From: a virus
IMG/VR virus record: IMGVR_UViG_3300044981_000350
Coordinates: 9,440 to 73,439 of that record
Length of the DNA stretch: 64,000 nt
Direction: 5' to 3' (one strand)
In this document: piece after piece, positions 18,080-42,243 of the stretch
How positions within the stretch are numbered: the stretch's first letter is position 1
How the letters are laid out: every line of letters starts with the position of its first letter
Notes under the pieces: generated by a model
Seen by the model: only the letters and a program-made list of their open reading frames with translations
Databases searched by the model: none
Told to the model about the DNA's origin: nothing
Program-made: the position numbers and the translations under genes

Positions 18080-19552
18080 ATGGCCGAATCGAACGACCGC
18101 GGCGATCGCGAAACCCCGACCGTGGTGATCGCCCCCGACTCCAACCGTGCGAACCGCGAGTATGAGGGGGTGGTGCGTGCAACCCTGCTTCGTTTTGGCT
18201 CCCCCGACCCCGACGGGGACCTCATCAAGACGAAGGATTATTGGAAGCACTGCCAAAGCGTGCGGATCGCCCCCGAGGTTTGCGGTGCGCTGATCTACGA
18301 GACGGTGCGGCATCGGCATGACCAGACGGTGATGCTTCGTGAAAACGTCGGCCTGATGGAACCGACCTCGGAGAAAATCTACAAGGGCCAACTGGTCGTT
18401 GTGGGCGGTGAGCCGCATGTGGTGCGCAAGATCGACGGGGACCTCATCACGGTCCGGAACTTCAACACGGGCGAAACATATGCCGTGACGCGAGACGCTG
18501 TCACGCCGGCGACTTCGGCCTCGGAACCATCGGCGGCCGCGCCGACGGATCGGGGCCAAGAGTGGGAAGTGCGTGTGCATCGCCACCGCGGTTACTCCCT
18601 TGCCAAGATGAAAGATGTCGCGGGCCGCAAGCCCGACGAGATCACGGACCGCAACATCATCTGGGGCGAGTTCTATGACGACGAACGCGCCAAGGAGTTC
18701 GCGCGGAAGCTCGCCCAGGGCGGCTTCATCGCCGTGTATGGGCCCCGCAACGAGCTCTATCGGAGCGGCGCCAACGAGAAAGCCGAGGATCGCGTCGGTT
18801 TCAAGTGGGTCGACGTCTCCTTCGCCAAGACGGAAGATGCCGAGAAGTTCTGCAAGCTAATCGAGAAGCAGGCTTCGAACATTGGCGCTTTCATGGGCGG
18901 CACCTCACACGGTGCGATCGTGACTACCAACGCGAACGACGCGACGATCCGGAAGGTGCTGAAGAAACACCGGTGGCAGGGCGCTTACTCGGTGCCGGCG
19001 GAGTTGAGCAGTGCCGCCGACGCCGGAGAATGTGCCGGTGACCCCTCCGCGATGGAAACCATCGAGGCGGTGGCGGAACCCATCGATTCCAACGCGGTGC
19101 CGTGGGTGAAGGTGACGCGTGATGTGGATCGCTACTCCGCTGCGGTGAAGACGGCCGACAAGATCGGGCCGATCAAAGATACGTGCAAGGTCTACGACCT
19201 CTTGGGTGACGCCCTCAATAAGGAGGACCAAGAGGTATTTTGTGTCGTGCTACTCGACCTCCGCGGGAACCTCCGGGGAGTCTGCGAAGTCGCCCGAGGG
19301 CAACGCTCACGTGTGACGGTCGGTGTCGCTGACGTGCTGCGGCCGGTCATCGCGAGTGGCGCCGAGGGCTACCTAGTCGTTCATCAGCACCCGAGCGGAA
19401 AGGCGATGCCGAGTAAAGCCGATCGCGATCTTACGCGCCTCATCGCGGAGGCCACGAAGCCCTACGGCAAAGACGTGTGCTTCATCGATCACGTGGTCAT
19501 CGGCATCGGGCAGGCCTATTCGATCTGTGAGTCGAAGCTCTACAAGTGCTGA
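18080..19552 (+). CDS. multidomain protein with C-terminal RadC-like JAB domain
   Basis: QEVFCVVLLD, VVHQHPSG..PSKADRDLT, FIDHVVIG; about 330 aa of unassigned N-terminal domains. Confidence 0.8.
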   Translation: MAESNDRGDRETPTVVIAPDSNRANREYEGVVRATLLRFGSPDPDGDLIKTKDYWKHCQSVRIAPEVCGALIYETVRHRHDQTVMLRENVGLMEPTSEKIYKGQLVVVGGEPHVVRKIDGDLITVRNFNTGETYAVTRDAVTPATSASEPSAAAPTDRGQEWEVRVHRHRGYSLAKMKDVAGRKPDEITDRNIIWGEFYDDERAKEFARKLAQGGFIAVYGPRNELYRSGANEKAEDRVGFKWVDVSFAKTEDAEKFCKLIEKQASNIGAFMGGTSHGAIVTTNANDATIRKVLKKHRWQGAYSVPAELSSAADAGECAGDPSAMETIEAVAEPIDSNAVPWVKVTRDVDRYSAAVKTADKIGPIKDTCKVYDLLGDALNKEDQEVFCVVLLDLRGNLRGVCEVARGQRSRVTVGVADVLRPVIASGAEGYLVVHQHPSGKAMPSKADRDLTRLIAEATKPYGKDVCFIDHVVIGIGQAYSICESKLYKC

Positions 19553-22889: not shown

Positions 22890-24200
22890 GTGGTGGTGAC
22901 GCCCCATTGGCCGTCGTATCAAGGCACGGCCCGACGGGGCCTCGGGCTCGACGTGGGATCGCTCACGACGGTCGCCAGCAGCGCGGGCGCTGCGGCCAAC
23001 GCCGGAGACGTCTTCAACCCGGATGATCCAACGCAGGATCTACCGGGGCAGGCTACGGCTCAGTTCAACTCGTTGGTGAATTCGGCCCAGCCCGCGGTAG
23101 CTCTACAGCAACAGCTTCAAAGCGCGATCGGCTCCGCCACCGGCCAAGCCCAAGCGGCTTTCCAAGGGTATGCGGGCGAGATCCAGGCCATCGAGAGCTA
23201 CCCCGGGGCGGCGGAGGCGGCCGAAGGGATGATCACGGCCGCCGGTGGTGGTGTGCCGACGGACGCTCAGCTCCAAGGGGCCTTCACCGTCGCGGCAACC
23301 GCCGGTGCCGTGGCCCTCGGTGCGACCGCGACGGCCGCGGCGACTATCGTGGCGCCCCTCTGCGCGGTCGTATGGGGAGCCGGGTACGCGATTGGGGCCC
23401 TCGTCCAAAACATCCTCGGGATCACGAGCGGTAGCCCTGCACCATGCTCCGGCGGCGACACCGCGGTGTACGGAACATCTCCCGGAGATCCGAACTGGCA
23501 AACGTACATGGGGTTATCGGGCCCAGAGCTCGGCGCACCGTGGGGCCCCTACGCACCCCAGCAAGCAGCGAACATCCAAACGTTGAAGAGCCTCGCCGGT
23601 AACCCGACGTACGGCGCCCCTGCGAACTGGCCCTATTGGACCCCGTACACGCGAGGGGCCTTCGAGAACTGGGCCGGCGGGATCATCATCCACGCCGAAG
23701 AGCTTTGGATGAATTGCAAGAAGGTGCCGCCGGACAACACGGCGACCACGCTCTTGAAGGGTCTCGTAGGGGCGTGGAACGCGCAGTACCCCAATGCGCC
23801 GAAGCGTCAGATCAACATCGCCGGCCTGGGGCCGACACCATTGGATGGCCAGATCAAGACGCTGAGCAACACGTCGTTTCCAACAAGTTTTCGGCCCCCG
23901 CTCTATTGGCAATGGATGGCATGGCAGGGCGATCCCATTCAGTACCTCTTGACCCAGGTCTCGAATGAGCAAGGGGGGAATATCGCGATCACCGTCGCCG
24001 ACCCACCCCTGACGCCCCCCGCGGCCTCGGCCCCTACTACTTCCGCGGGTACCGCCGTCGCCAACGTCGCGGCCGGTACCGCCGTCGTCGGCGGGGCGGC
24101 ACTCACCGGGACCGCAGTGTATGCTTTTGCCAAGGGTCAAGCCGTCAGCACCGTCCTCAAGTCGGGCTTGCTCGCGATCAAGGGATGGTTCATTCGATGA
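22890..24200 (+). CDS. putative virion membrane protein
   Basis: N-terminal RRGLG, internal and C-terminal hydrophobic segments; exact GTG start uncertain. Confidence 0.65.
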   Translation: MVVTPHWPSYQGTARRGLGLDVGSLTTVASSAGAAANAGDVFNPDDPTQDLPGQATAQFNSLVNSAQPAVALQQQLQSAIGSATGQAQAAFQGYAGEIQAIESYPGAAEAAEGMITAAGGGVPTDAQLQGAFTVAATAGAVALGATATAAATIVAPLCAVVWGAGYAIGALVQNILGITSGSPAPCSGGDTAVYGTSPGDPNWQTYMGLSGPELGAPWGPYAPQQAANIQTLKSLAGNPTYGAPANWPYWTPYTRGAFENWAGGIIIHAEELWMNCKKVPPDNTATTLLKGLVGAWNAQYPNAPKRQINIAGLGPTPLDGQIKTLSNTSFPTSFRPPLYWQWMAWQGDPIQYLLTQVSNEQGGNIAITVADPPLTPPAASAPTTSAGTAVANVAAGTAVVGGAALTGTAVYAFAKGQAVSTVLKSGLLAIKGWFIR

Positions 24201-24640
24201 AACGCCGCCGCAGAGCTCGCGCGAACCCGACGGGGGCCCAATGGCTCCTCATCTCGGGTGCAATCGGCGCCGTCGGTGTGCTGGGCTACCTCGTCTACAA
24301 GGCGAACGCCCCCGCTGCATCGCTCCCCTCCGGTGCCGGCTCGACCTACAACGTTCAGCTCTCTTCGGGTTCTCTCCCGACCATCACGATGTCGCTCTCG
24401 AAGGGCGACCAGATGAGCCTCACGCCCCCCGCGGGCGGTACCCTCCCCACCGTGACCTTCAGCCCCACGAACATCGTCGGCCCCAACCCCAACGGGGCCT
24501 ACCTTGCCTACTCACCGATCGCGGTCGGTAGTACGACGTGCACGGTCAACTACACCGACACGACCGATACAACCAGCACGACGAGCACCGCCACCGGCAA
24601 CACCGAAACCGCAACCTTCACCGTGAACGTGACAGCTTGA
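24197..24640 (+). CDS. NP-leader membrane protein with Thr-rich beta ectodomain
   Basis: MKRRRRARANP + TM helix; ATGA coupling. Confidence 0.75.
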   Translation: MKRRRRARANPTGAQWLLISGAIGAVGVLGYLVYKANAPAASLPSGAGSTYNVQLSSGSLPTITMSLSKGDQMSLTPPAGGTLPTVTFSPTNIVGPNPNGAYLAYSPIAVGSTTCTVNYTDTTDTTSTTSTATGNTETATFTVNVTA

Positions 24641-24840
24641 TGGCTCGGCGTCGCGCGCGGGCGAACCCCGGAGTGGATGTGTGGCTCGCGCTTGGCGCAG
24701 GCGTCGCCTTGCTCGGTGCCGGCATCTACTTCTTCACCAGACCGGCAGCCACCACAAGCACTACCGGCACCGGCGCACTTCCCCCAAGCACCCACCGCGC
24801 GGCCATCCCGATGGTCTACACCGCCCGCCTCACTTCCTGA
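24640..24840 (+). CDS. small NP-leader membrane protein
   Basis: MARRRARANP + TM helix; TGATG coupling. Confidence 0.75.
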   Translation: MARRRARANPGVDVWLALGAGVALLGAGIYFFTRPAATTSTTGTGALPPSTHRAAIPMVYTARLTS

Positions 24841-24852
24841 TCGGAAACCCCC

Positions 24853-25299
24853 ATGGCCCGTCGACGCAAGCGCACCCGTAAGACTGAAGTTCGAGAGAAC
24901 GGCCCCGAGCTCCTCTGGATTCTCGCTGGGTTGGGCGTTCTCGGCGCTGGCACCGTGGTCTACCTCGCAACGCGGCCCCCGGCGACGACGACTCCCTCGT
25001 CGGCCGCGGTGCAGGCGGCGACGCAAGCGCGCCTCAACGCGATCGAGTCGAACATCGCTGATCTGGCCAATGAAGGAATCCCGGCGCCGGTGAGTGATAC
25101 GATCCCGAACAACGTCGCCACGGCTCTTTCGAACGGTGGCGGTAGTACGGGCCCCGTGAACACCGGGAACGCCGACGTCGACAACGCTGCGAACAGCGCG
25201 ATCAATAACGCTACGGGCCAAGCTACCGACGCGGTGAATAACGCGACGAGCAGCGCCGGCAACGCGGTGAACAGCGCGGCCTCTCAGCTCGGATTCTGA
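24853..25299 (+). CDS. NP-leader-variant membrane protein
   Basis: MARRRKRTRKTEVRENGP + TM; Asn/Ala-rich tail. Confidence 0.75.
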   Translation: MARRRKRTRKTEVRENGPELLWILAGLGVLGAGTVVYLATRPPATTTPSSAAVQAATQARLNAIESNIADLANEGIPAPVSDTIPNNVATALSNGGGSTGPVNTGNADVDNAANSAINNATGQATDAVNNATSSAGNAVNSAASQLGF

Positions 25300-25308
25300 T
25301 CTTTTCCG

Positions 25309-25920
25309 ATGGCGCGCGCTCGTGAAAACCCCATTGAGCTGGCCGTGTGGCTCATCGCTGCCCTCGCGGCCGCAGCGACAGGTACGGTTGTCTACGTAGC
25401 TGCGAAGAAGAGCGCATCGAACGCCGCGGCCACTGCGGCGACAACGGCCGCGAACAATGCGGTGCTCATCGGCCCCGCCATCACGAACCCCGAGGCCGGC
25501 GGCGCGGGAAACTCTGTCGCCGAAGCGGCCAACGCCGCCTTTGTGGCCGATCAGCAAGCCGCCGCCGCGGCCGCCGCCGCCAACGCCGCCCACCTCGCGA
25601 CGTTGACCGACACGACCTACCAGCTTTCATTGAGCGGGCAGGCCCCCTCAGCGACCGCCAGCTTTCTCCTCAAGGTCGGCGACACGATCCAGATCACGCC
25701 GAGTATGGCCGGGGACCCGCCCGTGGCTCGGGTGTGGACCTACAGCCCCGTGAGCTCTAGCAGCATCATCCAAGAGTTGGGCTCGGCCGATGGGGTGAGC
25801 GCCACCTTCAAAGCGACCGCCCCGGGCTCGGGGGTTCTCCTCGTGCAGAACGTCATGGCTGGCAACCAGAATGTCGTCTACATGACCTACACCGTCAACG
25901 TCGAGGTCATCGCAACGTAG
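25309..25920 (+). CDS. NP-leader membrane protein with Ig-like C-terminal domain
   Basis: MARARENP + TM; LKVGDTIQIT...TFKATAPGSG beta pattern. Confidence 0.75.
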   Translation: MARARENPIELAVWLIAALAAAATGTVVYVAAKKSASNAAATAATTAANNAVLIGPAITNPEAGGAGNSVAEAANAAFVADQQAAAAAAAANAAHLATLTDTTYQLSLSGQAPSATASFLLKVGDTIQITPSMAGDPPVARVWTYSPVSSSSIIQELGSADGVSATFKATAPGSGVLLVQNVMAGNQNVVYMTYTVNVEVIAT

Positions 25921-25996
25921 GGGCGAACATAGGGTATTGGAGGCATGGGCGGGGGCAGCCTTAGCCAATTCTGCCCCGCCGCAGTAAACTCCCTCT

Positions 25997-26266
25997 ATGG
26001 ACGTCAAGTCGGGCGCTCTGGTCGGTTTCGTGACGGCCCTCGGGGGTGTCGCCGGCCTCGTGTTCGGATACACGGCTGCGTCGCTGGTCGACGCCAAGAA
26101 GCCCGGTGAGGTCGCGGTAGGGTTCGGGGTGATCGGCGGCCTGGTGGCCTCCTTCGCGGCCGGCACCATCATCGCACCGGACGCAACTACGACGACCAGC
26201 ACGACCACAACGACCCCCACCCCGGCGGTGGGCTCTTCCGGGATTCCGGCGCAACTCAGCCGATAA
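25997..26266 (+). CDS. two-TM small membrane protein
   Basis: Two GxxxG-rich hydrophobic helices; TAAACT 6 nt before the ATG. Confidence 0.7.
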   Translation: MDVKSGALVGFVTALGGVAGLVFGYTAASLVDAKKPGEVAVGFGVIGGLVASFAAGTIIAPDATTTTSTTTTTPTPAVGSSGIPAQLSR

Positions 26267-26277
26267 AGGGCCCGGCC

Positions 26278-27492
26278 GTGGCCGACTTCAACCCCGCACT
26301 TCCCGCGACGGCGACCCGGCGGCCCTACCCCGATGGGGCCCCGGGCATTCGCATGTCCCTTGAGGCCATGGCGCAGAAGATGCGCGAGGGTCGGTTGGAC
26401 CCCGGCGTGCGGGGATGGGCGATTCAGGCGTTGAAGGATGCGGGGATCGACGGGCGTGGAAACACGACGGTGCGCGCGCAGGCTTCGGCGCTCTTGGATG
26501 CATTGCGGGCGGTCACGACATACGCACCAGATCCCTACGGGGCCGAGTATATCCCTAGCGCCGCCGCCACGTTGTGCCTCAAGCCAAACCTCTGCGTCAA
26601 CGGCGAAGACTGCGACGGGTTGAGCGTTGCACTCGGAAGCCTGATGCTGTCGATTGGGATCCCGACCCAGATCGTCAAGCAGACCTTCGGGGGCGGCGCC
26701 CAAGAGCACGTCCTCATCGCGATCTACGACGGGACCGATTGGCTTTACGCTGATCCGTCGACGCGGTTGCCGCTCGGGGGCGCCGTGAGTGCAGCGCGCG
26801 AAGATTGGATCGATCCGATGGGTGCGGTGGGCCCTCTGCCGGAGGCGCAACCCGAGATCATCACCCTCGGAAAACCGCGCGGCCTCGGGAGCGTTCTCGG
26901 GTACCCGACGACTTCCGACGCGCACCAACTCCTCGACACGGCGATCTACAACGCCGGCCAGCTGAAGACCGCGTGGGATAACTGCAACAGCTGCACAGGC
27001 GCTTCGTCGACCACGTGCGGATGGCCTGACCCGGGTACGACTAACATTTCCGCAACCGGCCCCGGCGCCGATGCGTGGGCTGCGTGGCAAGCCGACTGCG
27101 GCAGTATGATCAACGACCTCAATACGCTCGTCGCGCAATGGAACGCGCAGAGCGCGACGGCTGCGCACTGGATGGATTCGTGGAGCTACGACCCGCTTTT
27201 TTGGGATCAGATCCGCGGTATCATCGAGCGTCAGATCGATCTCGATCAGCGCTTCCGAAACAGCGGCACTAACTGCGCGCTCCCGACTTACCCGAATGAG
27301 CCGCAGCCGATCGCTACGAACGACCCCGACCAGTGGGTTTACCAGGATGCGAACAGCGCGATCAAAGGGGTCGAGAGCGTTGCGGCCAATGCGGTGAAGC
27401 CGGTGTCGATCGCGATCGGCGGCATCGCAGTCGGCTTGATGCTCGCCGCCGGCGGTTACTTCCTTCTTGATCGACTCATCCCCCGGCGATGA
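26278..27492 (+). CDS. transglutaminase-like cysteine protease with C-terminal membrane anchor
   Basis: Catalytic triad pattern GEDCDG..VAL, EHVLIAI, WLYADPS; internal RGLG; C-terminal TM. Confidence 0.8.
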   Translation: MADFNPALPATATRRPYPDGAPGIRMSLEAMAQKMREGRLDPGVRGWAIQALKDAGIDGRGNTTVRAQASALLDALRAVTTYAPDPYGAEYIPSAAATLCLKPNLCVNGEDCDGLSVALGSLMLSIGIPTQIVKQTFGGGAQEHVLIAIYDGTDWLYADPSTRLPLGGAVSAAREDWIDPMGAVGPLPEAQPEIITLGKPRGLGSVLGYPTTSDAHQLLDTAIYNAGQLKTAWDNCNSCTGASSTTCGWPDPGTTNISATGPGADAWAAWQADCGSMINDLNTLVAQWNAQSATAAHWMDSWSYDPLFWDQIRGIIERQIDLDQRFRNSGTNCALPTYPNEPQPIATNDPDQWVYQDANSAIKGVESVAANAVKPVSIAIGGIAVGLMLAAGGYFLLDRLIPRR

Positions 27493-28142
27493 CCATGGGC
27501 TTGGTCGCTCCCGGTTCCTCCACGGCGTCGACCATCGCCCAATATTTTTTCTGGGGCGTCGTCGCCGCGGGGCTCGGCACCATCGGCTACTACATCTTCG
27601 CGCCGATCCCTCACGAGCGGGATAACCCTCGGCTCGGATCCGGCGGCCCGCGCGGTGGCTCGAAGAAACGCAAGCTGCCGATCGTGAAGGGCCGGAGCTG
27701 TCGGTTTGAAATGAAGGAAGGCCCCGATGTCACGTGCGCGGGGGCGATGCTCCACGACCCAACGGGCAAGGCATGGCCGGCGCGTTCCGTTTTGTGCGGG
27801 CCCATTCGGCGCAAACTTCGGAAGGCATCCGATGCGGAGCTCGAGGGGGCGGGCCGCCACTACTTCGGCGGGAGTTATCCCGCGCGCGTCGTTGAAATCG
27901 ATGCGCCCAACCGCAGCATGGAAGGTTGGCGGTACCTCGGCGAGGTTGAGCGGATCTACTACACGCGCGTGGGTCGAAAAAACGGCAATGTGCGGTTCCA
28001 ACATCCCTTCAACAAACCGAGCGCGCTCGCGACGGTGATGAAGGGCCGGGGCAGGGTGCGGCTATACCGTAAGGGCCGCTTCGTTCGGTTGGAGCTCCCG
28101 CGGGGTAGCATTCTTGACAGTAGAGGCTATGTTTGGCCCTGA
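27489..28142 (+). CDS. membrane-anchored basic protein (ERDNP after TM)
   Basis: N-terminal TM then ERDNP and a basic domain (LGEVERIYY...FQHPF). Confidence 0.65.
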   Translation: MTMGLVAPGSSTASTIAQYFFWGVVAAGLGTIGYYIFAPIPHERDNPRLGSGGPRGGSKKRKLPIVKGRSCRFEMKEGPDVTCAGAMLHDPTGKAWPARSVLCGPIRRKLRKASDAELEGAGRHYFGGSYPARVVEIDAPNRSMEGWRYLGEVERIYYTRVGRKNGNVRFQHPFNKPSALATVMKGRGRVRLYRKGRFVRLELPRGSILDSRGYVWP

Positions 28143-28375
28143 TGACAAATAATCGGTCTCTCATCGTGGAATACAAAGGCGGCCTTGATGTGAGCATCGA
28201 CCGGGCGGTGGAGAAGGGCGCCCGAAAAGAACGGGACGGCTCGGGGTTTTCGTTCCTCGATGGAACTCGGGATCTCTCGTTCTCATTCACGCAGGGCCGT
28301 TTCGCCGAGGCTGCGAAGGCTCGAATCAAAGCCATGCTTGGGCGAAAGGTCACCACCCGCATTGTCTCTCACTGA
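28142..28375 (+). CDS. small hypothetical protein
   Basis: DGSGFSFLDGTRDLSFSF; TGATG coupling. Confidence 0.55.
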   Translation: MTNNRSLIVEYKGGLDVSIDRAVEKGARKERDGSGFSFLDGTRDLSFSFTQGRFAEAAKARIKAMLGRKVTTRIVSH

Positions 28376-28632
28376 AGCTGCCGAGCGCGCCCTTGCCAAA
28401 TTTGATAGGCTGATGGAGCGTGGGCGATTACCTCGACAAGCTTGGCGCAAATCGGGCCGACGGACTAGAGCACGCCGCAACCGCCAAGTCGCACCGTAAG
28501 CTGCGCCGCAAGGGTACCTCCTTGACGACCACCCCGAAGCGCGCGAAACTCAGAGTCAAGCGAGTCGCTACGAAACCACCCGGGAAGGAAACGAGGGGCA
28601 CCACCAAAAAGACTCCGTCGGAGAAAGCGAAG

Positions 28633-29922
28633 ATGGCCAAGAAGAGCAAGCGCTCGAAGAAGCGTCGTTCGGCAGCGCAGCAAGCCGCGACGCGGAAGAT
28701 GCTTCGCGCCGCCAAGGCAAAGCGAGCCGGGAAAAGCCGCCGCGGCTCTTCGAAGCGAAAGGCCCGTAAGAGCGGCAAGCGCAAGAGCGCGAAGCGAGTC
28801 GCCGCGGGCAAAAAGGCCGCGCGGACCCGCAAGCGCCGCGCGTCCGTTGGAGCCTCCGAGCCGACGCGCAGCAAGCGGAAGAGCGGCAAACGTAGGGCCC
28901 GAAAGGTTCGTGCGGCTCACTCGATCAAGCTTCCCCGCGGCAAGCGCGGTGCAAAAAAGCGCGTCGGCGTCCACGTAAAAGTGGGCAAGAAACGCCGCTC
29001 GCGTGGATTCTCAGTTCCGCGGAAGACGAAGCGCGTCTACGTGATCGCAGCCGAGAAGAGCCGCCGACGTCGGAAGCGCAAGGCAAAGGCCAACCCGGCC
29101 AAGCGCCGCCGTCACTCGAGCGGTCGACGCAAGGGCGCGATGGAAAACCCGATGGACGGGGTGGAGCTCTTCATCGGAGCCATCACCGGCCTCGCGGGCT
29201 TCCTGACCGCCGACGTGCTCGACCGTTTCCTCGCGACTCACCCCCTAACGGTCTCTACGGCCGCCTCCGGGTCGACCGCAGCGACGTATACCGATACGCC
29301 CCCGACGTCGGGCGACTACCAAGGCCTCTTCAATGCGACCGCGATCTGCGCCCCGATGGACGCAACGCGGTGGCTCGCCGGCCTCGGTGTCGCAACCGTT
29401 CCGCTCGTCATCGCGCACTTCATCTCGGCCCCCAAGGGCCGAGCGGCGCTCCAGTTCTTCGGCTACGCGGCCGGGATCCGGGTCGTCGGCAAGGGCGTGA
29501 TCGACATGATCGCGCAGCTCACGCAGCCGACGCAGCTCGGCCAGCAGCTGTACGACGGTGAGATGCGCGCCGCGGCCCTCAAGGCCGGCAACGGCACGAT
29601 CGCCTCTGGCGTGAACCTCCCGAGCTCCGGCTTGGGTCGTGCCCGCCTCGGCACGGGCAAGCCCTGCGCCCCTTGCGCCACGAAGAAGATGGGCGCCGGT
29701 TACCCCAGCGCTCCCCGCGAAGTGACCGCGGTGACGAACAACAGCACCCCGACCACGCAGAACCAGCCCACGTCGACCCCGACGAATACGGCCCCCACGG
29801 CCTCGGCCCCGGCGGCCACCCCGCCGGCGCCTCCCGCGGCCGCGAACACCCTCACGGGCGCGCGCTTCATCAACGGGCTTCCTCGACGAAACCCGAATTG
29901 GGGTTATCAAGGAGACGAGTAA
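28633..29922 (+). CDS. protamine/histone-like core protein with membrane segments
   Basis: About 170 aa K/R-rich N-terminus, KANP and AMENP, hydrophobic helices, SSGLG, Pro/Thr tail with RRNP; ORF is open upstream to 28420. Confidence 0.7.
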   Translation: MAKKSKRSKKRRSAAQQAATRKMLRAAKAKRAGKSRRGSSKRKARKSGKRKSAKRVAAGKKAARTRKRRASVGASEPTRSKRKSGKRRARKVRAAHSIKLPRGKRGAKKRVGVHVKVGKKRRSRGFSVPRKTKRVYVIAAEKSRRRRKRKAKANPAKRRRHSSGRRKGAMENPMDGVELFIGAITGLAGFLTADVLDRFLATHPLTVSTAASGSTAATYTDTPPTSGDYQGLFNATAICAPMDATRWLAGLGVATVPLVIAHFISAPKGRAALQFFGYAAGIRVVGKGVIDMIAQLTQPTQLGQQLYDGEMRAAALKAGNGTIASGVNLPSSGLGRARLGTGKPCAPCATKKMGAGYPSAPREVTAVTNNSTPTTQNQPTSTPTNTAPTASAPAATPPAPPAAANTLTGARFINGLPRRNPNWGYQGDE

Positions 29923-30027
29923 CAGACGACGAGTGGCGGCGTTTTCCCGGGGAACGGAAAACAGAGTGTCTTTGACCGTTGGGTGGCGCCTTTGGGGCAC
30001 CCGACAACACCAGGTTGGAGACAGATC

Positions 30028-31359
30028 ATGGCCTATCAATCGCGAATCGTGAATCAGCCGAAGAGCAAGACGCTCGTTCGGCCCCGTCCCGCAGACCGCT
30101 ACGTCGTGGGCGCCTCCGGCGTTCCCAATGAGGCGAAGATCAAGGCAGGCCTCGGCTCGGCCGGTCTCGGCTCGATCCTCGACATCATGAAGGCGTCTAG
30201 CGAGACGCCGGTGTGGAGCATGGACGTCATCGAGCAGGTCCGCTGGACGATGACCGGCCCGCAGACCGACGCGTCGGTTCAAGCGAACTTCGGCGCGGAG
30301 ATCGACCTCTTCGGCTCCGGCAAGTCGCCGCAAGGCATTGACTTCGTCGAGACGACGATGGCGCAGACGGGCCAGACGCAGACGCACTTCGTCGCCTGCT
30401 ACATCGGCTTCCACATGGAGCCGGAACCCCTCTGCTTTACGGCGCGCGGCAACGCGTCGACGCACCCCACGAGCGCGGTGGCTCAGCCCCCGTCCCCGGA
30501 CGTCTTCACGCAGAACGACCGCGCCAACGGCGCCCTCGGCACGGCCGTCGCGGCCGGCACCCAGACGTTCCTCCCGGCGGTCTACCGCCACGGCTGGTGG
30601 GCGAACTACGTTTGCTGGCACATGGCCCGCGCGTACAACCTCCGGTGGAAAATCGGCCAGCACGTCAACATCATGGACGAGCAGTTGCGCCACACGGCGT
30701 ACATGCCGCCCAGCGCGCAAGAGGGCTCGGCCTCCAACTCGCAGGTCGATGTGACCACGTTCGTCGCGAACCTCAACCAGCGCTACGACTCGCTCGGGTC
30801 CGCGCTCGACTTCATCCCGTCGAACTTCATCCGCATCGGTAGCGACGCGGTCGGCGGCGTGAACGTCGGTTTCTTCATGCCCTCGCGTGACTTCGAGATC
30901 GTCGATGCCACCTACGGCGGCATGGACCTCCGGAGCATGCTCAAGGGCAACAGCGAGATGCGGAAGCTCTGCGTCCCGTACGTCATCGCCCCGGGCGTGC
31001 CCATCGGCCTCTTCCTCCAGGAGTGCGACACAGTTCAGGGCGACACGATGCGCCAGTTCCTCTCCATCACGCAAGGCCTCGGCGGCGCAATCCCGCCCTC
31101 TCTGACGCCGGACGAGAACTACATCGCGGAGCCGACCGCCACGGGCACCAACGTCATGTTGGAGCGCACGCTGAGCGGCACGAACGTCGCGCAGCAAGTC
31201 GACGCCGAGCGCGTCGTCTTCCAGGGCGGCGATCTGAAGCTCACGCTTCCGATCCGCGGCTTCGAAGTGAGCGCCGACTGGTACAACCAGCTCTCTTCGT
31301 CCGCCGACATCCGCGCCGCGGTCTTCGACTGCGTCGGGATGCGCTTCGCGGCTCAGTGA
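30028..31359 (+). CDS. putative major capsid protein (non-HK97; jelly-roll suspected)
   Basis: GGAG RBS, strongly C/G-ending codons, N-terminal AGLGSAGLGS, beta-strand-like segments, central position in the structural block; fold is inferred. Confidence 0.5.
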   Translation: MAYQSRIVNQPKSKTLVRPRPADRYVVGASGVPNEAKIKAGLGSAGLGSILDIMKASSETPVWSMDVIEQVRWTMTGPQTDASVQANFGAEIDLFGSGKSPQGIDFVETTMAQTGQTQTHFVACYIGFHMEPEPLCFTARGNASTHPTSAVAQPPSPDVFTQNDRANGALGTAVAAGTQTFLPAVYRHGWWANYVCWHMARAYNLRWKIGQHVNIMDEQLRHTAYMPPSAQEGSASNSQVDVTTFVANLNQRYDSLGSALDFIPSNFIRIGSDAVGGVNVGFFMPSRDFEIVDATYGGMDLRSMLKGNSEMRKLCVPYVIAPGVPIGLFLQECDTVQGDTMRQFLSITQGLGGAIPPSLTPDENYIAEPTATGTNVMLERTLSGTNVAQQVDAERVVFQGGDLKLTLPIRGFEVSADWYNQLSSSADIRAAVFDCVGMRFAAQ

Positions 31360-31393
31360 CAACGGGGGTAGCTCCCCATAAGGAGACCCTCCG

Positions 31394-32149
31394 ATGAGCA
31401 ATATCGTCGCATTCAGCGAGGAGCAGTTCAAAGCGCTCATCGCTCAGATCCGAACCCCCCATAGCAGCGGGTTGGGCGCGCCTCCGGGCAAGCCCTCTCG
31501 AGCCTTGGGGTTCGGATGCGGCGACAGCGACTTCGGCCCGCTCGCCACCGGCATCTACTCGATGCTGGCGGCGGGCTCGCCGCGTCTCGCTCTCGCCAAG
31601 GCGCGCGGCGTTCCGCTCGCCCCCTACATCATCAACGTGCGGGCGATCTTCCCGGACACGTCCACCACGTTGGTCCCCGACGTCGGCAGCGACGTGAAAA
31701 TTACGCAGGATACGCTCATCGACTCGCTCATCATCCGGATCCAAAACGAGTCGGACACGGCGAACCAGAACCAGTTTCAGTCGCTCTCTGACTTCTTCTA
31801 CGGGTACCAGAGTGCGATCGAAGCGACCCTCGATGTGCAGGGCGCGCCTCGCTATACGGTCACCGGCGATAAGTTCGTTCCCCTCAGCGTGCTGGGCGAT
31901 CCGAACAACGGCGTCGGGCACTGGCCCGGCGGGTGGGTGCTCACGTATCAGCAACAGCTCTTCATGAGCTTCCAGGCGAAGGTGCTCCTTCCCTACGCGC
32001 CGATCGAAGTGATCTGCTCGTTCCGCGGTTGGGTGCCGGTCACCCAAGCTTTCGTCAGCATGACGAACCGCGAGGCGATCACGCTCCTTCAATCGGAGTT
32101 CGGCATTCAACTGGACGATTCGTACATCAATCGAGTCGTTGCCCTCTGA
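31394..32149 (+). CDS. putative second capsid protein
   Basis: AGGAG RBS, N-terminal SSGLGA, beta-rich core (DTLIDSLIIRI...WVLTYQQQLFMSF...IEVICSFRG). Confidence 0.45.
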   Translation: MSNIVAFSEEQFKALIAQIRTPHSSGLGAPPGKPSRALGFGCGDSDFGPLATGIYSMLAAGSPRLALAKARGVPLAPYIINVRAIFPDTSTTLVPDVGSDVKITQDTLIDSLIIRIQNESDTANQNQFQSLSDFFYGYQSAIEATLDVQGAPRYTVTGDKFVPLSVLGDPNNGVGHWPGGWVLTYQQQLFMSFQAKVLLPYAPIEVICSFRGWVPVTQAFVSMTNREAITLLQSEFGIQLDDSYINRVVAL

Positions 32150-32161
32150 CCCTAAGCCCCG

Positions 32162-32971
32162 ATGGGTCGCATCGTCGAAATTGCTTCGAGTGGGCTCGAT
32201 GAATACCTCCAAGGCGTCGGCGGCGACCCTTGGGGGGGTTCATCTGCGCTCGGCTTGCGCGTTCCCTTTCTTGCGACGCCCGACAAGAACAACCGCTACC
32301 TCTTTCTCCTCGCGAGCTTCACGATCGGCGAGGGCGCGTCGGTAGTTATCAAGGGCTACCGACAATACGCATCCCTCGGGATCGCGCTCAGCGCAACGCG
32401 GTTCATCGAGCAAGAAATCACGAGCCCTGCGTTTCGACTCCCCGACGGGAACATCAGCTGGGCGATCCGAGGGTTGGGCCCGCCGAACGCCGGCGGCTAC
32501 CCAAAGCAGGGCCCTACCCCCGACGATCTGCGTTCGTTCAAGAAGAACTGGGCCGACGGCAGCTGCCTTCTCTATAACGACTACACGATCGCGGCGGGCA
32601 ACCAGATTTACACGCAGCTCGAGTCCTACGTGGCGCCGAACCTCGGTCGACCGTGGGGCACCGCGCTCCCCGCCGGGCAGCAAGGCAACTTCACCGACCT
32701 ACGCACGCCGTGGAAATCGAGCCGCGCGTGGGCGAGCCTCGATGTTCACGTCGATGGACCCACCACCATCGCGTTTTTCGCCAGCGTGCGGCAAAGCGCC
32801 GGCACCTACGCGGCGGCCGCCCCATCGGCGAGCTTCTCCGGGATGAACACCCCCGAGGAAGCTTTCATGGCGAACTTCACGACGGGCGGCGATGCGCCCA
32901 CGAAGCCAATCTACTGGCGCGTCGGGGGAAGTCTCATCGTGGAAGTGCAGAAAGGATTCACGGGTCCATGA
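32162..32971 (+). CDS. putative minor capsid or vertex protein
   Basis: Beta-rich soluble protein adjacent to the two capsid candidates. Confidence 0.4.
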   Translation: MGRIVEIASSGLDEYLQGVGGDPWGGSSALGLRVPFLATPDKNNRYLFLLASFTIGEGASVVIKGYRQYASLGIALSATRFIEQEITSPAFRLPDGNISWAIRGLGPPNAGGYPKQGPTPDDLRSFKKNWADGSCLLYNDYTIAAGNQIYTQLESYVAPNLGRPWGTALPAGQQGNFTDLRTPWKSSRAWASLDVHVDGPTTIAFFASVRQSAGTYAAAAPSASFSGMNTPEEAFMANFTTGGDAPTKPIYWRVGGSLIVEVQKGFTGP

Positions 32972-33345
32972 AACGCCGCAAACGTCGTTCCTCAGAGACG
33001 ATCGTCGTCTACCAGAAGAACCCGAAAATCTCCCCGTGGGTGTGGGTCCTCGGCGGGGCGGCTCTTCTCGGCGGCGGGTACCTCACCTACTGCTATTTCA
33101 AGACGCACTTCACGGTCGCGGCGAGCATGGCCTACGGGGTGCCGGCCGGCGCAGCGATTACCCTCACTGCCCCCGCGGGCGCCACATGGACCGGGCTCAC
33201 GGCCAGCGATGGGAGTCAAGTGCAAGTCGCGGTCGGGCAGACGACCCCCCTCACGTTTACCGCGAGCGCCACGACGGGCGTGACGTATACCGTCGCGTGG
33301 ACCCTCAACAACGTGCCGGCGACGGCCACCATCACCACGCAGTAA
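32968..33345 (+). CDS. NP-leader membrane protein, small beta ectodomain
   Basis: MKRRKRR...YQKNP + TM; LTAPAGATW motif. Confidence 0.75.
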   Translation: MKRRKRRSSETIVVYQKNPKISPWVWVLGGAALLGGGYLTYCYFKTHFTVAASMAYGVPAGAAITLTAPAGATWTGLTASDGSQVQVAVGQTTPLTFTASATTGVTYTVAWTLNNVPATATITTQ

Positions 33346-33349
33346 ACCC

Positions 33350-33751
33350 ATGGCTCGTCGAAACCCAGACCTGTCCACCCTCTGGTGGGCCCTCAGCGCC
33401 GCATCCCTCGCAGGCACCGTCGGCTACTACGTCGGCAAGGGCGTCAACCCGCTCAACCCGGCGTCGAACGTCACAACGAATATCGCCCTGACGAATGGCG
33501 GTTCCCTCACGGCGCCGGCCGGCGGTACCTGGATCCTGACCCTCCCGAGCGGCGCGACGTGGACGAACCTGACGGACACGAACAACGACATCACCTCGCC
33601 GCCCACGGGTACCGGCCCCGCTACGATTACCACCCCGGTTTCGGGTGTGACCTACACTGCAACGTGGAGCACGACCCCCACGACAGTGACCACCGGTCGA
33701 AACAATCGAAACAACCAGAATACGCAGACCGCCACGATCACGGCGCAATAA
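33350..33751 (+). CDS. NP-leader membrane protein, small beta ectodomain
   Basis: MARRNP + TM; LTLPSGATW motif. Confidence 0.75.
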   Translation: MARRNPDLSTLWWALSAASLAGTVGYYVGKGVNPLNPASNVTTNIALTNGGSLTAPAGGTWILTLPSGATWTNLTDTNNDITSPPTGTGPATITTPVSGVTYTATWSTTPTTVTTGRNNRNNQNTQTATITAQ

Positions 33752-33760
33752 GGGAATCCC

Positions 33761-34153
33761 ATGGCTCGACGAAAATCCCTTGCCCGCCGATCCCGATCGA
33801 GGGAAAACCCCGGCATCCCCCTCTGGATCTGGCTCGCCGGCGGGGCCCTCGCGGCGGGCGGCGTCGGCTACCTCATCTACACGAACACCGTGAACAGCCC
33901 GGCGCCGGCCCCGGGAGCTACGGCGGCCCCCGGGACGTCGAACATCACATTGGGTACGACCCCCGTCACCGTCCCCGGAGGCTTCGTTACCGTGAGTCTA
34001 CCCGTCAACGCCACGTGGGTTTCCCTCACCGGCGGCGGGGCCACGGCGGGATCTTCTGACCAGGTGACTATCAACCTCCCCAGCGGAAGCACCGCGACGG
34101 CCGTTTGGAACAACGGAACGGCCCAACAGACCACCACCATTACCGCTTCGTAG
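33761..34153 (+). CDS. NP-leader membrane protein, small beta ectodomain
   Basis: MARRKSLARRSRSRENP + TM; VSLPVNATW motif. Confidence 0.75.
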   Translation: MARRKSLARRSRSRENPGIPLWIWLAGGALAAGGVGYLIYTNTVNSPAPAPGATAAPGTSNITLGTTPVTVPGGFVTVSLPVNATWVSLTGGGATAGSSDQVTINLPSGSTATAVWNNGTAQQTTTITAS

Positions 34154-34190
34154 CCCCGCGTAGTATCATAGTCCTAGGAGATCAACCCCC

Positions 34191-34403
34191 ATGCGCCGTC
34201 GTGCTCGTCGAAACCCCACCCTTCCCACCTGGGCCCTCGTCCTCGGGGGAGCCGCCGTCGTCGGCGCCGTGGGTTACGCCATCTACACCAAGCAGCAAGC
34301 CACGACGCAGATCGCTGGCGCTGCCAACGCACTCGCCCCCGCGTCCACCACGACCACGTCGTCTACGACCACGACGACGCCGGCCGCCACTTCGTCGTCG
34401 TAA
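34191..34403 (+). CDS. small NP-leader membrane protein
   Basis: AGGAG RBS; MRRRARRNP + TM + Thr/Ser tail. Confidence 0.75.
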   Translation: MRRRARRNPTLPTWALVLGGAAVVGAVGYAIYTKQQATTQIAGAANALAPASTTTTSSTTTTTPAATSSS

Positions 34404-34412
34404 ACCCCGCCG

Positions 34413-34955
34413 ATGGGAATGTGGGATCAGGCGAGCGATTGCGAGACCTGCGGCGGCGGCCTCCGCGCCTGGGGCCATCTCGCGCCGCCCAATCCTACTG
34501 TTTCCCTAGATGAGGTGAGTCCGATGGATGTTGGAAATCGATGGGGCATTTTGACGGGTGCCGGGGCCGCACCGGATCGGCTCCGGCGCGTGCCGCGGGT
34601 CTTCGCGGGGCTCGGTGACGACAGCTCCGACGATAACCCGCCCGTCGACACCGACACTACGAGCGGGAGCATCGACAGCAGCGACAACTCCGACGCTGCG
34701 GTCAACCCGACGATTTCACCGGTCACCGCCAACCCCGGCGAGACCATCTCCGCCAGCCCGACGCCGACTGCGGTTTCAAACGCGAATGGCGGCGGCTCGA
34801 CATCAAGCGGCGGTGGCGGTTCCCCGAGTGTCTCCTCAAGTACCCCCGCGAGCACGAACTACACCCCGTGGATCATCGGGGGCGCGGTCGTCGGCGGGGC
34901 CGGCCTCCTCGGGTTCGCGCTCTGGCGGCGGCACCACAAGCTGCATCGGCGATGA
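34413..34955 (+). CDS. GLG-motif protein with C-terminal TM anchor
   Basis: FAGLGDD, Ser/Thr linker, TPWIIGGAVVGGAG..WRRHH; start uncertain. Confidence 0.65.
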   Translation: MGMWDQASDCETCGGGLRAWGHLAPPNPTVSLDEVSPMDVGNRWGILTGAGAAPDRLRRVPRVFAGLGDDSSDDNPPVDTDTTSGSIDSSDNSDAAVNPTISPVTANPGETISASPTPTAVSNANGGGSTSSGGGGSPSVSSSTPASTNYTPWIIGGAVVGGAGLLGFALWRRHHKLHRR

Positions 34956-35380
34956 AGCTCCTCGGCGCCGGTAATCGTGGCGCCGGGCTTGGGGATGCCT
35001 CGATCCTTCCGGCGGATCCACTCACCCAAGCGACTGCGGATCTTGTGGCGTGGCTCGTGGCGAGTCCGTGCACGCAAAACGCCGTCACGCAGGTAAGCGA
35101 TTTCCAAACGGCGTGGAACACTTCGACGCTCGGCGGAACGCTCACCGTCGACGGTAAATACGGGCCCCAAACACGCGGCGCGCTCCAAGCGGCGATGAAC
35201 GCGGCGGGGACGGGGAGCGCCCCCGCAGATTGCTTCACGTCCGCGAGTGCGGTGTGCCCTCAGGCTGCGGCCGCTGCGTCATTCGCACCCTGGATCATCG
35301 GCACCGCCGTGGTCGCTGGCGCTGGTGTTATTGCGTACACTTATTGGCAGCTCCACCACGCTCGCGGCGGCCGCCGCTGA
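34952..35380 (+). CDS. peptidoglycan-binding-domain protein with C-terminal TM anchor
   Basis: GAGLGD; VSDFQ...[15 protein letters not shown] (PG_binding_1-like); [14 protein letters not shown]. Confidence 0.7.
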
Positions 35381-35390
35381 GGATCCCCCG

Positions 35391-36068
35391 ATGCCCATTC
35401 CCTACACCCAACCGGGTTACTCGTACAGCCCCGTCGCAGCCGTTTCGCTCGGCCAAGTGGGGGCTACGGGATCGCACGGGGCGAGCGGGCCGACAGGCCC
35501 CGCGGGGGCCACTGGAGCCACCGGACCGACGGGCACTACCGGCGGAGCGGGAGCGACGGGAGCTACCGGGAGCGGAGCTACGGGAGCCACTGGAGCCGCC
35601 GGCGCGACAGGCCCCGGTGGTGGAGCCACGGGAGCTACCGGCGCAGGTGGTGCGGCCGGCGCTACGGGCGCCACCGGAGCGGCCAATACCGGCCATCATG
35701 CCTACAGCCAAAACGCGTCGGCGGTGAGTGCCTCTACGACGCCGACGTTCACGAGCGGGTCCTACACCTCGACTTCGGGGACGATCCTCATCATCGCTAC
35801 CATGACGGCTACGGGGCTTGGCGCGACGTTGGCGGCAAACGACGCCGTTGTCTTCAACCTCCTCCAAGACGGATCGATCATCGGAACTTCCCCGAGCATG
35901 AGCGTTGGCGCTGCGGGCCCCGGCCCGGTCGACGCGTCGGGCGCCCTCTCGATGATCCTCGCCGCCTCCGGAGCCCACACCTACGCGATCCAAGCGACGG
36001 TTTTGACCGGGAGCCACACCGCCACCGTTCAAATCGGCCAGGCCGCCATTTCCATCACCGACCTCTGA
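35391..36068 (+). CDS. collagen-like fibre/spike protein
   Basis: [10 protein letters not shown]-terminus, GAT/GPT triplets, C-terminal beta domain. Confidence 0.8.
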
Positions 36069-36092
36069 TTTTTTCCCTCCGAGAGAACCGCC

Positions 36093-36698
36093 ATGCCCAT
36101 TCCCTACACTCAGCCCGGTATTGATTACAGCGTCGCCGCGGTGGTCGCCGTAGGCGGCGGTGGAATGACCCGCGGTGCCACGGGCGCCACGGGGCCTTCC
36201 GGCACCATCGGGGCCACGGGCGCCACCGGAGCCGGAATCATCGGTGCGACAGGCGCCACCGGACCTACCGGCGTCGGCGCTACCGGCGCTACGGGAGCCA
36301 ACGGCTCCGGCATCGTTTCGACCACCACCACCGCTTCGGATGTCGTTCTAACGACGAGCCCCGCGGCTATCGTCACGAGCTCCGCGGTGTCGGTCACGAG
36401 CGGCCAAAAGGTGTTGGTCCTATTCTCGGCCAACGTCGCCAACACCGGCGAGGTGGTCACGAGCGGGGAAACACTCGTGAGTTTCGCGGCGCAGTTCGAT
36501 ACCACGACCGTTGACTCTTTCCAACAGTTGTTGGTGAACGCCACCGACAACGGAAATGCGACCGTGAGCTGGTCCTACGAGGTCACGGGCCTTTCGACGG
36601 GAAGCCACACGTTCCGGGCGCTCGGGTCGGTCGACGCCACTACGTGCACGCCCGAGGTCATCGCGGCTCGCATCACCACTGTTCTTCTTCCGGGCTAA
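36093..36698 (+). CDS. collagen-like fibre/spike protein
   Basis: [10 protein letters not shown]-terminus, GAT triplets, C-terminal beta domain. Confidence 0.8.
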   Translation: MPIPYTQPGIDYSVAAVVAVGGGGMTRGATGATGPSGTIGATGATGAGIIGATGATGPTGVGATGATGANGSGIVSTTTTASDVVLTTSPAAIVTSSAVSVTSGQKVLVLFSANVANTGEVVTSGETLVSFAAQFDTTTVDSFQQLLVNATDNGNATVSWSYEVTGLSTGSHTFRALGSVDATTCTPEVIAARITTVLLPG

Positions 36699-36701
36699 CC
36701 T

Positions 36702-37346
36702 ATGAGCGTCGGCCAGATCCTCAACCGCGGCTCACGGGTTGCCGTTCAACCGGGGATCCCCGCTGGCGCTACAGGCCCGAGCGGAGCCACGGGGCCGACC
36801 GGCGCCACGGGAAGCACGGGGCCCACTGGCTCCCCCGGAGCTACGGGTGCTACCGGGGCCACGGGTGTCGGAGCCACGGGCGCTACGGGGCCGGGTGGCG
36901 CGGGCACCGCCGGGGCTACCGGGGCTACCGGGGCCACGGGAGCTACGGGAACGGGAACAGCCGGCGCGACTGGCGCCACCGGACCGACCAGCGCCGGGGG
37001 GCCGGCCGTAGTCACCGCCTCTACACCAGAGGACACCAACCCCCACACGTTGACGACGCGCGCCATCACCTCCAATACGGAGCTCGTGGTCGAGGTTGTT
37101 TTTCTCGCGCGTGACCCCACCGACGGCAATGACGAGGGCGGCCGTATCGCCGGTACCTTCAAGAATACGGCGGGGACCGCAGTGCAAGAGGGGACGACGA
37201 CGAAGGTGTGGCAGCAGGCGAACGCCGGGGGCGTCGTTTGCACCTTCGGCGTGACCGGCGGGAGCTACGAGATCATCGGGACCGGCAACGGTGATGGCAC
37301 CACCGACTGGACTCTCTACATCTACGAGTACCCAAGCGAACTCTAA
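36702..37346 (+). CDS. collagen-like fibre/spike protein
   Basis: GAT/GPT triplets and a distinct C-terminal domain. Confidence 0.8.
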
Positions 37347-41594: not shown

Positions 41595-42233
41595 GTGCAC
41601 TTCGATCTGAATCTCGCTCATCTCTCCGTCGATCCCGCGAGCGTCGTGACCGCGTGGGTTTCGCTCTGCGCCGCCGTTTCGCTCGTCAACAAGTACGTCG
41701 TGACGCCGTACTTCCCGATGGCCGCGCGGATCATCAGCCTGCCCCTCAACATCCTCCCGGCCCACGTCGGGCAGCTCATCACCGACATCGAAGCGATCAT
41801 CGCCGACATCAAAAACCCGCCGCCCGCCACACCGACGGCAATCGCCCCGATGACTCCGACGGTTCCCCCCGCGACTCCGCCCTCGACGAGTCGCATGGGC
41901 CTTGCCGCCGGAGCCTTCGCGCTCATCTTCGGGATCCAGACCGTGGCCTTTGGTGCGGCGGTGACCGGCTGCACCCCGGCGCAACAGGCGGAGGCCGATA
42001 CGATTGAGCAGTTGGTGCTCCACGATCTCGCGGCGGGCAAATCCGACCAGCAGATCGAGGCCGACATCGCCTCGTCATTGGCGGGCCAAGTAGGCACCGA
42101 CGCAGTCGTGATCCTCAACGACGTGTTGACGTTCTTGCTCGACGCGAAGGCCATCCCGGCCGATTTGATGAGCGCCGCGCTCGCGATGAAGTCGAGTGCG
42201 GCCCCCGTGGCCGCGGCCCACCGTATCAAGTAA
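41595..42233 (+). CDS. membrane protein (holin-like N-terminus, internal lipobox-like AVTGC)
   Basis: Hydrophobic segments and position before the peptidase. Confidence 0.5.
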   Translation: MHFDLNLAHLSVDPASVVTAWVSLCAAVSLVNKYVVTPYFPMAARIISLPLNILPAHVGQLITDIEAIIADIKNPPPATPTAIAPMTPTVPPATPPSTSRMGLAAGAFALIFGIQTVAFGAAVTGCTPAQQAEADTIEQLVLHDLAAGKSDQQIEADIASSLAGQVGTDAVVILNDVLTFLLDAKAIPADLMSAALAMKSSAAPVAAAHRIK

Positions 42234-42243
42234 GCCCCCGTCG

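Follow-up and report, generated by a model that had tools for sequence, protein, structure and literature searches.

Here we describe a leader rich in arginine and lysine, closed by the dipeptide Asn-Pro (N-P), that opens a family of small membrane proteins encoded by an uncultured soil virus. The window that we analyzed spans 64,000 nucleotides, bases 9440 to 73439 of the 73,439-base record IMGVR_UViG_3300044981_000350, which CheckV rates as complete; its GC content is about 64%, and all positions below are numbered from its first base. Within the window, eight small open reading frames (ORFs), arranged in two clusters (24197-25920 and 32968-34403) on either side of the capsid candidates, begin with one common N-terminal module (Table 1), namely, a Met, two to eight Arg or Lys residues, the edge R-(E/R/A/K)-N-P, three to five further residues, a Trp, a Gly-rich hydrophobic helix, and a Tyr, usually followed by K/R-P. 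The leader strings quoted by a first-pass annotation of this DNA are all present where it placed them, and the Trp-containing helix ending in Tyr, which it had seen in most cases, follows the motif by three to five residues in all eight. Its count of about a dozen proteins, however, shrinks to these eight true N-terminal leaders: the proteins at 28420, 27489, and 60834-61280 (minus strand) carry N-P in a different layout, and the G-A-Q-E-N-P at 51053, with neither a basic run nor a helix, falls outside the pattern.

A family of small anchors opened by a basic leader

Judging from its composition, the leader forms the cytoplasmic side of what reads as a type II (N-in) signal anchor, with a Met-Arg/Lys arm followed by one glycine-zipper helix. 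In all eight proteins, the N-side flank of the helix holds two to eight Arg or Lys residues and a charge of +2 to +8, and the C-side flank usually holds one. A single hydrophobic helix of ~20 residues lies within the first 50 residues, with a best 17-residue Kyte-Doolittle mean of 1.2 to 2.2 (seven N-P copies scored). Type II signal anchors obey von Heijne’s positive-inside rule, by which the basic flank of a membrane helix stays inside, and the charge imbalance across the helix therefore predicts that the N terminus of these proteins is inside. Since a basic N terminus and one hydrophobic helix already make a signal anchor, the separate membrane-sorting tag once suggested for this leader is not needed; such a tag is further disfavored by the many homologous anchors that do without N-P, by the adjoining C-terminally anchored proteins that lack it, and by a probable holin, not a virion protein, that has it.

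The alignment of the eight leaders contains three invariant columns (M1, N10, and G27), and N-P is found in seven of them, the protein at 24853 having the variant N-G-P. At least in part, the eight proteins are, by sequence, paralogues that form one virus-specific membrane-protein family. A profile of the helix without the leader retrieves all eight copies, that at 24853 included, and the C-terminal parts outside the leader are alike in 32968 and 33350 (E 1e-6) and in 33350 and 33761 (E 0.004), with marginal similarity between 24197 and 32968 (E 0.038); the remaining small anchors have unrelated, low-complexity C-terminal parts. Because all eight belong to one family, their leaders are not independent. 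Their codons diverge—Arg is written as CGC, CGG, CGT, CGA, or AGA according to position and Pro as CCG, CCC, or CCA—which suggests that the leaders are not recent copies and that the amino acid pattern has been kept by selection. Searches of Pfam and PHROGs with the small proteins returned only sub-threshold matches to helix-containing families (e.g., DUF7182 at E 0.017 for one protein), which we regard as noise. A homologue search with the protein at 33761 found three proteins, too few for a census, and we used related loci and the helix-only profile instead. Antisense ORFs that face small anchor genes (33427-33633, 33877-34140, and 24550-25593, all on the minus strand) have a GC content at third codon positions (GC3) of 0.81 to 0.88, as high as that of the sense strand, so that a simple GC3-based gene caller takes the wrong strand here; our gene set consists of our own GC3-based calls, hand-corrected between 24.1 and 35.3 kb.

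The motif is more frequent than chance predicts. A six-frame scan of the 73.4-kb record for at least two R/K in 10 residues, N-P, and a hydrophobic 17-mer within 10 residues gave 11 sites, compared to a mean of 1.16 (standard deviation, 1.22; maximum, 6) in 100 dinucleotide shuffles. In our gene calls, N-P in a basic context occurs 9 times in the 5,528 amino acids of the structural block and 4 times in the 12,438 amino acids elsewhere, a density about five-fold higher. The enrichment in structural genes that the first-pass annotation implied is thus borne out, and the leader is, as it had noted for the replication enzymes, absent from the replication genes.

Related viruses were gathered through the candidate major capsid protein (40 loci, several of them duplicates of one another), and the N-P motif recurs in them down to 43% capsid identity. 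Outside the window, the helix-only profile matched 17 proteins, 14 N-terminal and three C-terminal anchors; N-P lies within ten residues of the helix in 10 of the former (two near-duplicates among the 10) and in none of the latter. Conservation in homologous contigs, which had been proposed as a check on the leader, therefore holds for the Asn of the core protein described below and for these 10 of 14 small-family members, and fails in the other four. Comparison of the sequences indicates that N-P is dispensable in the small family, with whole sublineages keeping the basic arm alone.

The junction of the core protein

The design of arm, junction, and helix also joins the protamine-like domain of a 500-residue protein, here called the core protein, to its three-helix membrane domain. 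Three N-P sites had been cited in this protein, of which only one, the N-P of A-M-E-N-P at 29146-29151, abuts a hydrophobic helix; the pairs at residues 225 and 491 have no such neighbor. All of the 22 loci that span this region carry the junction N-P, and N243 and P244 are two of only seven invariant columns of the core-protein alignment. A search of a representative library of 1.84 billion proteins with a profile of this junction and the membrane domain yielded 415 matches. Among the best 150 of these 415 matches (representatives clustered at 50% identity), 130 cover the motif: Asn is present in all 130, never replaced by D, S, or T, and Pro in 126, with Ala in the other four. Glu directly precedes Asn in 111 of 130 homologues and stands five residues past Pro in 132 of 142, and the 40 residues upstream of the junction are on average 37% Arg and Lys. 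The codons vary among 20 orthologues (Asn is AAC in 12 and AAT in 8), as do those of Pro. In its seemingly invariant N-P, the core junction differs from the small family, where N-P is dispensable.

In an AlphaFold2 (AF2) model of the core junction and membrane domain, built from 20 sequences (mean predicted local distance difference test [pLDDT] score, 71.8), the basic stretch is disordered. N-P occupies residues 13 and 14, preceded by residues 7 to 12 with a pLDDT of <50 and followed by a confident helix of 26 residues (17 to 42) and then by two long helices. The consensus past N-P is [LM]-[STG]-G-x-E, which we take to be a hydrophobic staple and a capping box, the cap position being the S/T/G at +2 from Pro. 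Given this cap and a model helix that begins three residues past Pro, Asn-Pro would lie just before the helix cap instead of forming it. The idea that Asn itself is the helix N-cap is weakened by this position and by the observation that no other cap-forming residue ever replaces Asn. The modeled membrane domain resembles only generic helix bundles (best Z 8.1, to transporter bundles), a common arrangement that does not indicate a family.

The motif coincides with the annotated start of some core homologues: M-E-N-P is the start in 16 of the 150 representatives and M-M-E-N-P in one, and others start at the next in-frame Met, as if gene callers tended to skip the Arg-rich half upstream. The idea that translation starts internally, at the conserved Met ahead of N-P by two residues, is unsupported and was rejected, as this codon is CTG or TTC in four of 20 loci, a weak Shine-Dalgarno-like word lies upstream in only three of 20, and the ORFs continue upstream.

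Other carriers of the motif and their genomic setting

Three families of the virion block carry the N-P motif—the small anchors, the core protein, and the family of the protein at 27489—and it is absent from the capsid candidates and the C-anchored proteins. In the 27489 family, an N-terminal helix occurs in four of 20 orthologues (the window, L001, L002, and L015), the other 16 showing no anchor, and [KR][ED]-N-P directly follows the helix, ahead of the Gly-rich linker, in all four anchored members. Outside this block, the probable holin carries its basic run and N-P after a soluble start of 40 residues; its GC3 of 0.79 equals that of the overlapping plus-strand ORF, and it lies upstream of a GH25 lysozyme gene on the same strand (E 6.5e-29). 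The surrounding region (59882-61960) is a probable lysis region, with this GH25 muramidase (minus strand), the membrane protein upstream of its gene, and a 192-residue protein that has a weak glucosaminidase match (E 0.0022) and a terminal helix. Two probable lipoproteins, at 43167-43532 (+) and 54604-55188 (+), have signal peptides that open with M-K-V-N-P and M-K-N-P and end in the lipobox-like A-A-C and T-A-C, so that N-P also occurs between the n- and h-regions of leaders that are cut elsewhere. The two C-anchored proteins downstream of the second anchor cluster are mirror images of the small anchors, with an ectodomain, then a helix that is rich in Pro, Trp, and Gly and resembles theirs, and then a basic His/Arg tail.

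Table 1. Proteins that carry the Asn-Pro motif, with the capsid candidate, the candidate enzyme, and the contrast cases (window coordinates)
Feature	Coordinates	Strand	Description
Small anchor protein 1, 147 aa	24197-24640	+	M-K-R4-A-R-A-N-P, then Trp and Gly-rich helix; GC3 0.82
Small anchor protein 2, 66 aa	24640-24840	+	Leader ends in R-A-N-P
Small anchor protein 3, 148 aa	24853-25299	+	17-residue basic leader ending in R-E-N-G-P (inserted Gly)
Small anchor protein 4, 203 aa	25309-25920	+	Leader M-A-R-A-R-E-N-P
Transglutaminase-fold Cys-His-Asp enzyme	26278-27492	+	C-terminal helix; putative reader of N-P
217-aa protein	27489-28142	+	Uncharged start, helix, H-E-R-D-N-P (N-P at 27624-27629), then a linker rich in Gly and a basic, soluble domain that is conserved
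Core protein, 500 aa	28420-29922	+	Lys/Arg-rich domain of ~240 aa, A-M-E-N-P junction, three-helix membrane domain, CxxC, Pro-rich tail
Candidate major capsid protein	30028-31359	+	Served as query for related viruses
Small anchor protein 5, 125 aa	32968-33345	+	Basic start; Q-K-N-P at residues 16-19
Small anchor protein 6, 133 aa	33350-33751	+	M-A-R-R-N-P, the shortest leader
Small anchor protein 7, 130 aa	33761-34153	+	Leader ends in S-R-E-N-P
Small anchor protein 8, 70 aa	34191-34403	+	Leader M-R3-A-R-R-N-P
Two C-terminally anchored proteins	34413-34955, 34868-35380	+	No N-P (contrast cases); ORFs overlap by ~88 bases
Probable holin-like membrane protein, 148 aa	60834-61280	-	Basic run and H-N-P (61125-61130) ahead of hydrophobic segments

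The only conserved enzyme in the module is the transglutaminase-fold protein at 26278-27492, in which C112, H144, and D159 are invariant in 17 of 17 orthologues, one from each of 17 loci. A sub-threshold Pfam match is found in five of the 17 family members (best E 1.4e-4), and a search of PDB sequences with the family alignment returned nothing at E ≤ 1. One orthologue (L003:4987-7320) has 778 residues, with matches to Hint (E 0.0024) and LAGLIDADG_3 (E 1.3e-4); judging from these matches, an intein appears to have been inserted beside the conserved Cys motif, which suggests that the Cys site matters. A complex prediction of enzyme residues 1 to 215 with the core junction (residues 214 to 266), run without controls, scored 0.28 compared to a mark of 0.32 and speaks neither for nor against an interaction. 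Another candidate cysteine peptidase, of 324 residues, is encoded at 42196-43170 (+) and conserved in L001 and L002; its Q-x-x-x-G-S-C, G-G-H-W, and N-S-W-G motifs follow the order of the papain family. This protein has no Pfam match even at E 10 and only a weak match to cathepsin L (E 0.44), over the His and N-S-W-G part. The 73-kb record holds no prepilin peptidase, legumain, adenain, T4-type prohead protease, or FlhB-family domain.

Recognizable genes of the virus include a VapE-type primase, a UDG-PolA fusion, SF1 and SNF2 helicases, a tyrosine integrase, a glycosyltransferase, the GH25 lysozyme, and a protein with a RadC/JAB domain. In the block at ~19.6 to 37.4 kb, Pfam and PHROGs gave no match to portal, terminase, HK97 capsid, or tail genes, and no virion-block gene has a named family. 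At the head of the block lies a 490-residue protein (18080-19552, +) with a C-terminal RadC-like JAB domain (E 4e-23), whose first 360 residues have no match. The capsid candidate at 30028-31359 has 215 metagenomic relatives on contigs of up to 82 kb. Its AF2 model is beta-rich (pLDDT 77), and Foldseek searches of PDB and BFVD with it found nothing at E ≤ 0.001. Its top VIA matches are jelly-roll capsid proteins, those of HCIV-1 and SPV1 (Z 3.9) and P3 of PRD1 (Z 3.4), but they also contain unrelated beta-sandwiches, so that the jelly-roll likeness is suggestive only. A tailless, membrane-containing particle is a plausible architecture for this 73-kb virus. As to the host, only two short contigs among the related loci come from metagenome-assembled genomes, binned to Polyangiaceae and Chloroflexota. 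No terminal repeats were found in the 73,439-base record; both of its ends lie inside collagen-like repeats, at which the assembly is probably broken, and proteins of G-A-T/G-P-T triplet repeats are also encoded at 35247-37346 (+).

Reading of Asn-Pro and comparison with known systems

Passage of the large basic domain of the core protein across a membrane is implausible, and the Arg-rich arms and the protamine-like domain should therefore share one face of the membrane, presumably the DNA face; the arm would then set the orientation of the anchor and lie on the membrane face of the DNA-binding domain. Within this arrangement we favor, at a probability of roughly 40%, the reading that Asn-Pro is a cutting point used after insertion. 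The protein would first insert into the membrane, and the chain would then be broken after Asn, either by cyclization of this residue, the route taken by other self-cleaving Asn-Pro proteins, or through the action of the transglutaminase-fold Cys-His-Asp enzyme, so that Arg-rich peptides and the protamine-like domain would be freed from their anchors inside the particle, much as Mu and pVII of adenovirus are released from their precursors. In the small family, where whole sublineages lack N-P, the cut would be optional. Several lines of evidence are consistent with this: (i) Asn seems irreplaceable at the core junction, while Pro tolerates Ala; (ii) the site is modeled in a flexible stretch at a module boundary; (iii) N-P recurs in proteins without apparent relation, including the four anchored orthologues of the 27489 protein; and (iv) 17 of 17 loci keep a candidate enzyme whose Cys, His, and Asp do not vary. 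A Pro after Asn blocks the competing deamidation route. The Asn-Pro bond is also the one broken in FlhB/YscU, reovirus mu1, and RsgI (PMC3207474, PMC10328401).

A number of observations weigh against a cut. The sequence analysis revealed no cut product, no link between protease and substrate, and no homology to self-cleaving families, and family searches of the record (C5, S77, and C13) found no relative of known virion proteases. The Pfam match of the enzyme at 26278 lies below the threshold (17.2 bits compared to 23), and this enzyme could equally serve in the cell wall or in cross-linking. The Asn-Pro sites known to cleave themselves depend on a strained turn within a folded domain (PMC3207474, PMC10328401), and the AF2 model of the isolated junction places the core N-P in a flexible stretch. 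The residues around this N-P form one conserved block that is continuous with the start of the helix, as would be expected of a structural element. From leaders of as few as four residues, a cut would release no more than trivial peptides, and the probable holin and the two lipoprotein signal peptides carry N-P without being obvious maturation substrates. Finally, four of the 14 N-anchored homologues found with the helix-only profile have no N-P, and, by eye, the anchors of L005 (four), L024 (four), L032 (four to five), and L019 keep their basic arms without it. Those of L005 form a syntenic four-gene cluster; the N-P-free arms of all four loci are rich in Ser, Thr, and Lys, and some have H-P or S-P at the equivalent position, which points to a structural role for Pro.

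Such a role is at the center of the alternative that Asn-Pro is an uncut turn or hinge, which we consider nearly as likely as a cut after Asn. With a fixed turn of the Asx-Pro type, the basic arm would be uncoupled from the helix and lie flat against DNA, lipid head groups, or the floor of the capsid; it would stay attached and tether the genome or the shell to the membrane. This explanation makes the fewest assumptions, and it accommodates the conserved E-N-P-[LM]-[STG]-G-x-E block that runs into a capped helix start, the small-family members that keep Pro with His or Ser in place of Asn (and the one N-G-P), the occurrence of the motif in the probable holin and where the n- and h-regions of the two lipoprotein signal peptides meet, and the absence of N-P from C-terminal anchors. 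It does not, however, explain why Asp, Ser, and Thr, which form the same turns and caps, never replace Asn in 130 of 130 core homologues, nor why the motif of the 27489 family follows a helix and precedes a Gly linker, where it starts no helix.

An unlikely alternative is that the R-E-N-P edge is a docking or address mark, held uncut by a protein of the capsid, the scaffold, or the assembly machinery that would admit only tagged anchors to the patch of viral membrane. The invariance of Asn would suit a specific contact, and the motif is common to unrelated proteins of the virion block, with its five-fold higher density there; yet the adjoining C-anchored membrane proteins of the same block and the homologous anchors of L005, L024, and L032 lack it, the probable holin has it, and no partner was identified. 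Least probable is that N-P is an heirloom without a function of its own, inherited by duplication within one paralogue family: the eight leaders are of one family and several lineages have lost N-P, but codons diverge while the amino acids stay constant, and the motif occurs independently in the core protein (130 of 130 with Asn), the 27489 family, and the probable holin.

Returning to the cut after Asn, we can only tentatively extend it to a whole maturation system, a version that we think doubtful as a complete account. Asn-Pro would then be the scissile mark in a large lineage, so far undescribed, of bacterial viruses that lack tails and contain a membrane. Once the proteins had been inserted and the particle assembled, chains would be broken at this mark, either through self-cleavage or by the transglutaminase-fold enzyme, itself membrane anchored; the protamine-like domain and the Arg-rich peptides would pass onto the genome, and anchors starting with Pro would be left in the membrane. 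If true, the system would parallel adenovirus core maturation, but bound to a membrane. The motif marks the meeting point of DNA-binding arms and membrane in a lineage with hundreds of uncultured members (215 relatives of the capsid candidate and 415 of the core protein). If Asn-Pro is where the chain is cut, maturation in this lineage would include a step that is new in its chemistry or enzymology, and the mature virion proteins of the lineage could be predicted by a simple sequence rule; as an uncut turn, Asn-Pro would still define a compact, portable module of basic arm plus anchor and an annotation marker for these viruses. Our literature search, whose coverage excluded supplements and subscription-only papers, found no description of such a leader or virus group.

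Among known signals, the Tat signal peptide combines S/T-R-R-x-F-L-K with an h-region and an A-x-A site; here the Arg runs are followed by N-P instead of x-F-L-K, and no A-x-A site lies past the helix. Class III (type IV prepilin) signals, which have Gly/Ala at -1 and Phe/Met/Leu at +1 and Glu at +5 of the mature chain and are cut by prepilin peptidase, are to our knowledge the only well-known signals in which a short basic leader is processed cytoplasmically on the N-side of the helix. The leaders share with them the short basic stretch directly ahead of a hydrophobic helix, but N-P is followed by T/G/I/D/K, and the eight leaders have no Gly|Phe/Met site and no Glu at +5. The record encodes no prepilin peptidase (A24, PF01478); a host enzyme is possible.

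As in the internal-membrane phages PRD1 and PM2, many small single-helix proteins are encoded among the capsid genes, in what may be a tailless virus with jelly-roll-like capsid candidates. The genome, at 73 kb compared to 10 to 15 kb, is far larger, Pfam and PHROGs revealed no sequence relation to the small membrane proteins of PRD1/PM2-type phages, and we know of no comparable leader motif in these phages. In adenovirus, the pVII and pX/Mu precursors are cut by adenain at (M/I/L)XGX-G. The likeness would lie in Arg-rich DNA-condensing peptides within precursors and in one short consensus across virion proteins; unlike in adenovirus, the motif is another one, the record has no adenain homologue, and the precursors are membrane anchored.

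A conserved Asn-Pro with an indispensable Asn is shared with FlhB/YscU (N|PTH), with reovirus mu1 and aquareovirus VP5 (Asn42|Pro43), and with RsgI, and the cut in mu1, a virion protein, releases a short N-terminal peptide (PMC3207474, PMC10328401). In contrast to those sites, which lie in strained turns of folded domains, the N-P described here is modeled as flexible, three residues ahead of a helix. The record has no member of the FlhB/YscU family (PF01312), and the motif proteins have no Pfam match above threshold and no sequence relation to the Asn|Pro self-cleavers.

The leaders have in common with type II signal anchors the basic N-terminal flank, the single helix of ~20 residues near the N terminus, and the lack of a recognizable signal-peptidase site. 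They differ in the conserved R-(E/R)-N-P edge three to five residues ahead of the helix, in the common Trp and glycine-zipper helix, in their occurrence as eight paralogues in a virion gene block, and in the reuse of the junction inside a protamine-like protein. What is new here is a signal anchor with an added conserved Asn-Pro junction, a combination of which our literature search found no description.

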